NCBI RefSeq assembly: GCF_988243305.1
Contig: NZ_OZ547136.1
Direction: 5' to 3' (one strand)
DNA length: 64,000 bases
Shown one piece after another: positions 34,463-35,995 of the stretch. The translations under genes were made by a program, and so were the position numbers. Under the pieces are notes generated by a model. The model saw only the letters and a program-made list of their open reading frames with translations. It was not told the DNA's origin and did not search any database. The number at the start of each line of letters is the position of its first letter. Positions within the stretch are counted from its first letter, which is position 1.

Positions 34463-34538
34463 GGAGGGATAATACAAGGCCTGATAAGACGCTATCTGAA
34501 CTGCACCCCAAATGTTGGACATAATCTGACATCTGAAG

Positions 34539-35069
34539 GTGCAGTTTATGAAACATTCATTTGAAGTAAAACTTGCCGCTGTAAATCATTACCTGGCCGG
34601 TCATGCTGGCATCATTTCTACGGCAAAACTCTTTCAACTTTCTCACACCAGCCTCTCACACTGGATTAATCTTTTTCTTCTTCACGGTCCTCGGGCACTG
34701 GATTGCAGACACAGGCGTAGCTATTCTCCTGAAGATAAACTTTGCGTGGTTCTTTATGCTCTCGGGCATTCTGAGTCTCTACCCCGGGTAGCTGCCCGGT
34801 TTAACATTCCCAGCCACAACACGGTTAAAAACTGGATAAAAGGCTACCGCAAATCTGGTGATGAGGCCTTTATCAGGCGCAGGAAGGAGAAAAGCATGAC
34901 CCGTTCTGATGATACCCATGAAAACGAGGCAAACATGACGCCGGAAGAGATGAAGAATGAGCTGCGTTATCTTCGCGCAGAAAATGCATATCTGAAAGCC
35001 ATGCAGGAGCATCTCCTGGAAAAAAAGCGCCAGGAGCTGGAGAAAAAACGAAAGTCATCCGGAGCCTGA
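34539..35069 (+). CDS. IS3-family transposase OrfA (HTH + leucine zipper)
   Basis: 176-aa ORF; slippery A_AAA_AAG at ~35020-35026. Confidence 0.8.
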   Translation: MQFMKHSFEVKLAAVNHYLAGHAGIISTAKLFQLSHTSLSHWINLFLLHGPRALDCRHRRSYSPEDKLCVVLYALGHSESLPRVAARFNIPSHNTVKNWIKGYRKSGDEAFIRRRKEKSMTRSDDTHENEANMTPEEMKNELRYLRAENAYLKAMQEHLLEKKRQELEKKRKSSGA

Positions 35070-35173
35070 GATGCGGACACTGCCAGTCTGACCTGTTAAA
35101 GGCTGCAGGGCTGGCCAGAAGCACGCTGTACTACCAGCTGTCACTGCAGAAGGCTAAGGACAAGTATGCTGAT

Positions 35174-35896
35174 GTGAAACAGCTCATAGCCTCCATCTTC
35201 CATGAACACCGGGGATGTTATGGGTACCGGCGGATCCATTGTGAGCTTCAGAAAAGAGGTCTTAAGTTCAGTGGCAAAACAGTGCGAAAACTGATGCAAC
35301 AGCTCGGCCTGAAGTCTCCTGTGCGCCTGAAGAAATACCGGTCTTACCGGGGAAATATGGGACTCGCTGCAGAAAATATCCTTCAGCGGCAGTTCAAAGC
35401 GGAAGCTCCCTGTGAGAAATGGGTGACAGATATCACCGAATTCAGGGCTGGCGGACAAAAACTGTACCTGTCCCCGATACTTGATTTGTTTAACGGGGAA
35501 ATCGTGGCGTGGGAAACTGCCTGCAGGCCTACAGAGGAGCTGGTGAAGCGCATGTTAAATAAGGGGCTGGAAAGCCTTGCAGAAGGAGAAAAACCGCTGC
35601 TCCACAGTGATCAAGGGTGGCATTACCGGATAAAAAGTTATCAGTCTGCCCTGGCAGACAAAGGGTTAGTGCAGAGCATGTCGCGCAAGGGCAACTGTCT
35701 TGATAATGCGGTAATGGAGAATTTCTTTGGTCACCTGAAAGAAGAAATGTACTATCGCCGGGACTACAGAAGTGTAGAAGAGCTGGAAAATGCCGTTAAC
35801 GAATACATAACTTACTGGAATCAAAAAAGAATAAAACTCAGTCTTGGGGGACTCAGTCCGGTAGAATACCGGACTGAGTATCAAAAAGCCGGTTAA
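35174..35896 (+). CDS. IS3-family transposase OrfB (DDE integrase core), expressed as OrfAB by -1 frameshift
   Basis: -1 frame relative to orfA, frame open across the overlap; integrase-core motifs. Confidence 0.8.
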   Translation: MKQLIASIFHEHRGCYGYRRIHCELQKRGLKFSGKTVRKLMQQLGLKSPVRLKKYRSYRGNMGLAAENILQRQFKAEAPCEKWVTDITEFRAGGQKLYLSPILDLFNGEIVAWETACRPTEELVKRMLNKGLESLAEGEKPLLHSDQGWHYRIKSYQSALADKGLVQSMSRKGNCLDNAVMENFFGHLKEEMYYRRDYRSVEELENAVNEYITYWNQKRIKLSLGGLSPVEYRTEYQKAG

Positions 35897-35957
35897 CTGA
35901 AACTGTCCAGGTTTTGGGGTTCAGTTCAATCAGCGTCGCATCAGGCATCCTGCTCAA

Positions 35958-35995
35958 ATGCCGGATGCGGCGTAAACGCCTTATCCTGCCTACAA
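35958..35995. repeat. REP element
   Basis: gccggatgcggcgtaaacgccttatcctgcctac. Confidence 0.55.

Follow-up and report, generated by a model that had tools for sequence, protein, structure and literature searches.

The spacer between yiiM and cpxA in the window (the whole 64-kb stretch of DNA analysed here) carries two unrelated insertion sequences, one of the IS3 family and one of the IS110 family, which inserted independently into a single REP. The best explanation of the locus is that IS1397, present as an intact copy, sits in the loop of this REP (REP1) and that IS621 inserted separately at the 3′ tail of the same REP, a reading to which we assign a probability of about 0.96. The identity of the element, its ORFs and catalytic triad, the duplications, the empty site and the recurrence at REPs were all observed directly in the present work. 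The feature is an already known insertion sequence that behaves as published, and the meeting of two IS in one REP is accounted for by the known REP specificities of IS1397 and IS621. The sequence-only reading of this DNA had already proposed that two unrelated IS share one yiiM–cpxA REP, a proposal that we can support, as deletion of both elements restores the empty K-12 site; it had missed the identity of IS1397, the known targeting of REPs by both elements and their recurrence in many strains.

The general features of the IS3-family element are listed below (coordinates are those of the window).

34497..35928, plus strand: complete IS1397 (IS3 family), 1432 bp, 99.8% identity over 1432/1432 bp to copies labelled in RefSeq
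34497..34521, plus strand: left terminal inverted repeat (IRL), starting with TG, TGAACTGCACCCCAAATGTTGGACA; 21/25 positions match the right repeat
35904..35928, plus strand: right terminal inverted repeat (IRR) with CA end; reverse complement TGAACTGAACCCCAAAACCTGGACA
34494..34496, no strand: left copy of the 3-bp target site duplication ATC, a single ATC in the K-12 empty site
35929..35931, no strand: right copy of the 3-bp target site duplication ATC
34548..35069, plus strand: orfA, 173 aa, helix-turn-helix DNA-binding protein (Pfam HTH_28, 3.7e-18; HTH_Tnp_1, 1.2e-08)
35021..35027, plus strand: A_AAA_AAG slippery heptamer of the −1 programmed frameshift, in phase with orfA
35027..35896, plus strand: orfB part of the OrfAB transposase in the −1 frame (Pfam HTH_21, rve, rve_2)

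The element had earlier been placed at 34479–35995; this interval does hold the IS, and it also includes the flanking REPs, the IS proper being 34497–35928. Full-length matches of the latter segment bear the RefSeq product name ‘IS3-like element IS1397 family transposase’, at 99.8% identity. On the basis of these RefSeq/PGAP labels and of the length of 1432 bp, which we take to be that of the reference IS1397, the segment is assigned to IS1397, presumably a member of the IS150 group of the IS3 family. The element is common: 1707 of the 5426 complete E. coli genomes contain a copy with a query coverage of 80% or more, at as many as 40 matching places in one genome, and the window copy differs from other copies at 3–27 positions.

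IS3-family elements are characterized by two ORFs (orfA and orfB), a −1 frameshift on an A-rich heptamer, a DD(35)E catalytic triad, TG…CA ends and duplications of 3–4 bp. The window element has TG…CA ends bordered by the ATC duplication, and two overlapping ORFs with orfB in the −1 frame at the slippery heptamer. Its terminal inverted repeats are 25 bp long and imperfect (21/25 matched, TGAAC…GTTCA); IRL occurs once in the 64-kb window, with zero copies expected in shuffled sequences. The duplications of other IS1397 copies are TAT, AAAC, GCCA and GCA.

The AAA and AAG of the heptamer are zero-frame codons of orfA, and the −1 frame stays open between 34961 and its stop codon at 35896. After a −1 slip, the OrfAB fusion (34548..35896) has 449 aa without an internal stop; it scores 388 bits against the NCBIfam model NF033516 (transpos_IS3; cutoff 160), with model positions 1–369 of 369 covered. 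The motif residues of the DD(35)E triad, assigned by inspection, are D295 (WVTDIT), D355 (HSDQG) and E391 (AVMENFF); the second D and the E are separated by 35 residues. The homologous CDS in RefSeq is annotated as a two-piece join tagged ‘programmed frameshift’. No significant frameshift-stimulating RNA fold was found: the segment 35015–35120 folds at −33 kcal/mol (z = −1.19), and 23 of 200 shuffled sequences fold equally well. All that the sequence-only reading had seen in the sequence is borne out, with tighter coordinates, among it the terminal repeats, the ATC duplication (here placed at 34494–34496 and 35929–35931) and the linkage of orfA and orfB by A_AAA_AAG (found here to be in phase, with the 449-aa fusion intact), and so is the assignment to the IS3 family, for which NF033516, the Pfam matches and DD(35)E all speak.

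As its ORFs and ends are intact, the window copy of this known IS3-family element is probably competent for transposition. By analogy with other members of the family, OrfA would be translated from the zero frame, and an occasional −1 slip at A_AAA_AAG would yield OrfAB. The latter may bind the terminal repeats, form a circular copy of the element and integrate it with a duplication of 3–4 bp, that is, transposition would follow the copy-out-paste-in route of IS3-type elements through a circular intermediate.

The target of both insertions can be reconstructed from E. coli K-12 MG1655, in which the yiiM–cpxA site is empty and the spacer is 105 bp long. This spacer is a BIME composed of two REPs in opposite orientation (REP1 and REP2) and reads …ccccggagtgt-ag-gcctgataagacgc-tatca-gcgtcgcatcaggc-atcctgctcaaat-gccggatgcggcgt-aaac-gccttatcctgcctgc…. 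The REP segments of the window are the following.

34479..34496, no strand: left half of REP1, stem gcctgataagacgc (34479–34492) and loop bases tatc; identical to K-12 (L005:3511-3528)
35929..35946, no strand: right half of REP1, atc, a and stem gcgtcgcatcaggc (35933–35946)
35960..35993, plus strand: REP2 of the BIME, intact, gccggatgcggcgt-aaac-gccttatcctgcctac

The two halves of an interrupted REP palindrome, reported earlier on either side of the element, are indeed found there (gcctgataagacgc and gcgtcgcatcaggc). Around the duplication the K-12 empty site reads gacgc-tATCa-gcgtc, so the comparison with genomes lacking the insertions, suggested as a check, finds ATC only once. In silico deletion of 33200–34478 and 34497–35931 gives the K-12 spacer with three SNPs. 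IS1397 entered the 5-nt loop (TATCA) of REP1 and duplicated ATC. The REP loop would be the preferred target of the element, whose transposase directs insertion into the loops of REPs (palindromic units). Loop-specific insertion with duplications of 3–4 bp is reportedly among the published properties of IS1397. The specificity of its insertion for REPs is stated in PMC1525189. A REP-loop site was found for all seven IS1397 junction pairs (the window, ST2747, BH100N, 042, N3, AST215 and ATCC 11775; see below).

The neighbouring IS110-family element has the following features.

33200..34478, minus strand: IS621 (IS110 family), 1279 bp counting one core dinucleotide
33198–33199 and 34477–34478: copies of the IS621 core, ag on the top strand and CT on the element strand
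33305–34285, minus strand: IS621 transposase (Pfam DEDD_Tnp_IS110 and Transposase_20; NF033542)
34286..34462, minus strand: non-coding region of the IS621 left end, 177 nt, putatively encoding the bridge RNA according to the literature

On the minus strand, the target of this element, ATCAGGC-CT-AC, exactly matches ATCAGGCCTAC, the natural target with the CT core. The element sits at the ‘ag’ just outside the stem of REP1, on its 3′ side. Its place in IS621 follows from its IS110-family transposase, from ATCAGGCCTAC with the CT core and from its position 3′ of the REP and outside the stem; it is identical at 1279 of 1279 positions to the copy at the same yiiM site in strain 2013C-3264. The left-end region presumably resembles the published bridge RNA sequence. 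It contains ACAGTATC, matching the right end of IS621 itself, and ATCGGGCCT, which is the specificity of the target-binding loop given in PMC11208160. According to the same source, ATCAGGCCTAC is the natural target, the bridge RNA directs the choice of target and, in an insertion assay on the E. coli genome, REPs contained 144 of the 173 insertion sites (PMC11208160); PMC3184786 describes insertion 3′ of the REP and beyond its inverted repeat. IS621, which is guided by its RNA, went into the CT core of the 11-nt ATCAGGCCTAC, here the 3′ tail of REP1 beyond the stem. A search of the whole window with Rfam at gathering score gave no match in the IS region, including the left end of IS621. Within the right end of IS621, at 33262–33291 on the plus strand, lies a terminator-like hairpin that includes a T7 run (ACAGCGCCGTCAGGCGCTGT TTTTTTC); it is oriented to stop transcription from yiiM and is antisense to the IS621 transposase gene.

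The distance between the two elements is 18 bp (34479–34496), as given in the sequence-only reading, if the core copy at 34477–34478 is counted with IS621, and 20 bp if that copy is assigned to the target. This spacing is set by the geometry of the REP, in which half a stem (14 nt) and four loop bases separate the two sites. Either order of insertion would be compatible with the flanks and with the IS copies, since each element leaves the target of the other intact; the window lineage is at most about 99% identical to the strains with single insertions.

The yiiM–cpxA BIME is a repeatedly hit target. IS1397 was found at three distinguishable positions of the BIME among different strains, as follows.

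ST2747: IS1397 in the REP1 loop, duplication TAT, offset by 1 bp from the window site
BH100N: IS1397 in the REP1 loop, duplication ATC, 27 positions different from the window copy, flanks 97.7–98.6% identical
Strain 042: IS1397 in the REP2 loop, duplication AAAC

Copies of IS1397 in this BIME are located at L001:2168-3599, L003:2168-3599 and L004:2168-3599 of the extracted loci. The insertion in BH100N, also with ATC, was considered as the same event by descent and this was rejected in view of the 27 differences and the identity of the flanks (97.7–98.6%). IS621 is present at the yiiM junction in 141 complete genomes. Pairs of IS621 and IS1397 in a shared REP, all with the 18-bp spacing, were found at two other loci.

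N3: ybaL–gsk, IS1397 in the same orientation as in the window, duplication GCCA
AST215: ybaL–gsk, IS1397 inverted, duplication GCCA
ATCC 11775 (type strain): kgtP–rrnG, IS1397 inverted, duplication GCA, both transposase genes frameshifted

The corresponding junctions lie at L002:3588-3634, L008:3610-3656 and L007:3609-3655. The frameshifted transposase genes at kgtP–rrnG in ATCC 11775 suggest an old insertion. The inverted geometry of the pair occurs in 348 of the 5426 genomes, most likely through shared descent for most of them, and the geometry of the window in one.

Three other explanations of the adjacent elements were weighed. Both IS1397 and IS621 are multi-copy repeats, through which a contig might have been misjoined so that the elements are not truly adjacent at yiiM–cpxA. 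Both elements occur together at this locus in none of the 5426 complete RefSeq E. coli genomes, and the junction pattern GGGATAATACAAGN{14,22}TGAACTGMACCCCAAA, which locally recovers the window, L002, L007 and L008, gave no match in metagenome_contigs and none in genome_contigs; since short-read assemblies break at IS, these two negatives carry little weight. However, a false join would be expected to leave mismatched flanks, whereas those of IS1397 are concordant (ATC and two halves of one REP) and those of IS621 are the CT core and two parts of ATCAGGCCTAC. Moreover, a unique 18-bp bridge joins the two elements, and each single insertion is known at the site in other strains. Given these matching target signatures and the reference spacer, restored save three SNPs on deletion of both elements, we regard a misassembly as very improbable. 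The recurrence of the adjacency and of the 18-bp spacing at three loci might also suggest a composite unit, in which IS621, the spacer and IS1397 moved together. Yet the spacer differs by locus (gcctgataagacgctatc here, gcctgataagacgcgcca at ybaL–gsk and gtcggataagatgcggca at kgtP–rrnG) and each spacer runs into the matching other half of the local REP, which argues for separate insertions at each locus. Joint movement is also at odds with the presence of IS1397 in both orientations relative to IS621, with the separate target signature of each element and with the strains that carry either IS621 alone (the 141 genomes) or IS1397 alone at the site; we give it next to no credence.

The pairing might, on the other hand, be non-random, if an occupied REP were a better target for a second element owing to local structure or supercoiling, so that pairs are over-represented. 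Pairs in a shared REP at three loci, from at least four separate events (the window, N3, AST215 and ATCC 11775), and the number of genomes with the inverted geometry (348, against one with that of the window) could be read in this sense. However, most of the 348 are probably inherited, and shared ancestry inflates the raw counts; the probable age of the kgtP–rrnG pair in the type strain points the same way. Our own rough estimate, the product of a few IS621 and a few IS1397 copies divided by a few hundred REPs with phylogeny ignored, gives an expectation of about 0.02–0.1 shared REPs per genome, the same order as observed, and we consider non-random nesting unlikely. It is similarly doubtful that singly occupied REPs are preferred or fully permissive targets that give rise to recurrent ‘IS nests’ of fixed 18-bp architecture. 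Such nests would place an end of IS1397 directly upstream of the left end of IS621, where the bridge RNA would be encoded. If pairing did exceed chance, or altered the expression of the bridge RNA, a classical DDE element and an RNA-guided recombinase would be interacting in a way not reported before. Independent insertion of IS1397 and IS621 into REP1 accounts for the locus as it stands.

IS1397 is said to have been described in E. coli by Bachellier, Clement, Wilde and colleagues between 1997 and 2003. The window copy shares with the described element its two ORFs, annotated with a programmed frameshift, the insertion in a REP loop and the duplications of 3–4 bp. Nothing of substance differs in this copy; its site at yiiM–cpxA beside IS621 is absent from the 5426 complete genomes. 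IS150, IS3 and IS911 have in common with the window element orfA and orfB, the A-rich −1 heptamer, DD(35)E, TG…CA ends and 3–4-bp duplications, but their sequences are distinct, and the near-identical RefSeq copies are labelled IS1397. To our knowledge, none of the three shows specificity for REP loops. ISKpn1, an IS3-family relative of IS1397 from Klebsiella pneumoniae, also targets palindromic units, but it is a different element, with the REP type of another host. The transposases of ISKpn1 and IS1397 determine the type of palindromic unit hit, according to the title of Wilde et al. 2003 (cited in PMC1525189). IS621 and IS1397 both target REPs, here one REP, but they are mechanistically unrelated: IS621 encodes a DEDD/serine recombinase whose guide is a non-coding RNA. 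It also has no inverted repeats at its termini, and its insertions fall outside the REP stem, whereas those of IS1397 fall in the loop (PMC3184786).

The gene order around the insertions, sodA–kdgT–yiiM–(IS621, IS1397)–cpxA–cpxR–cpxP, is that of K-12. The genes yiiM and cpxA are convergent on the spacer: the stop codon of yiiM (33185) is located 14 bp before IS621, and the stop codon of cpxA (36005), with an overlapping hairpin, is located 76 bp beyond IS1397. Both insertions are on the downstream side of the two convergent genes, so that cpxRA should be unaffected and the insertions would be near-neutral. Multi-copy IS are substrates for homologous recombination in principle; the potential for rearrangement close to cpxRA raised in the sequence-only reading is speculation, as the gene order is that of K-12 and the window contains neither a rearrangement nor a sign of an effect on cpxRA. 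Promoters at the IS1397/REP/IS621 junction, either hybrid or outward-facing, were also considered and then dropped: a scan for the sigma-70 consensus found no site in 33100–36100. Nor does the end of IS1397, examined by eye, provide a better −35 box for the TATTAT of the IS621 left end. The segment 34497–35928 merits annotation as IS1397, and its significance beyond correct annotation is small. The locus can serve as a clean textbook case of REPs that offer a ‘safe-haven’ target to two insertion sequences of unrelated mechanism.

Several other features of the 64-kb window were noted. The 20-kb flank at 13000–33190 (fdo/rha/sodA/kdgT/yiiM) has a best identity of 98.8% among the 5426 complete RefSeq E. 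coli genomes, none reaching 99%, so that these genomes include no close representative of the source strain's lineage. A P2-family prophage lies directly downstream of cpxP and extends from about 38900 to beyond 58000; an integrase ORF (38910–39920, minus strand) is followed by replication endonuclease, portal, terminase and capsid genes, as seen by comparison with strain EC1. Between the P2 replication and portal genes, a variable region at 44685–48000 is AT-rich (36–44% GC, compared with 52–56% around it) and includes about 1.1 kb without any ORF of at least 90 aa. The gene at 45823–46308 encodes an M78/ImmA-IrrE peptidase resembling the CapP and RmrA models of PADLOC. Two further ORFs, 46375–46974 (plus strand) and 47057–47998 (minus strand), match PHROGs 8096 and 5937 and have no match in Pfam or PADLOC. 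The region may represent anti-phage cargo in a P2 hotspot. The only Rfam match in the whole window is SECIS_3 at 18946–19004 on the minus strand, which scores 84.3 bits against a gathering score of 63; this selenocysteine insertion element is located inside the gene annotated in relatives as the formate dehydrogenase alpha subunit.
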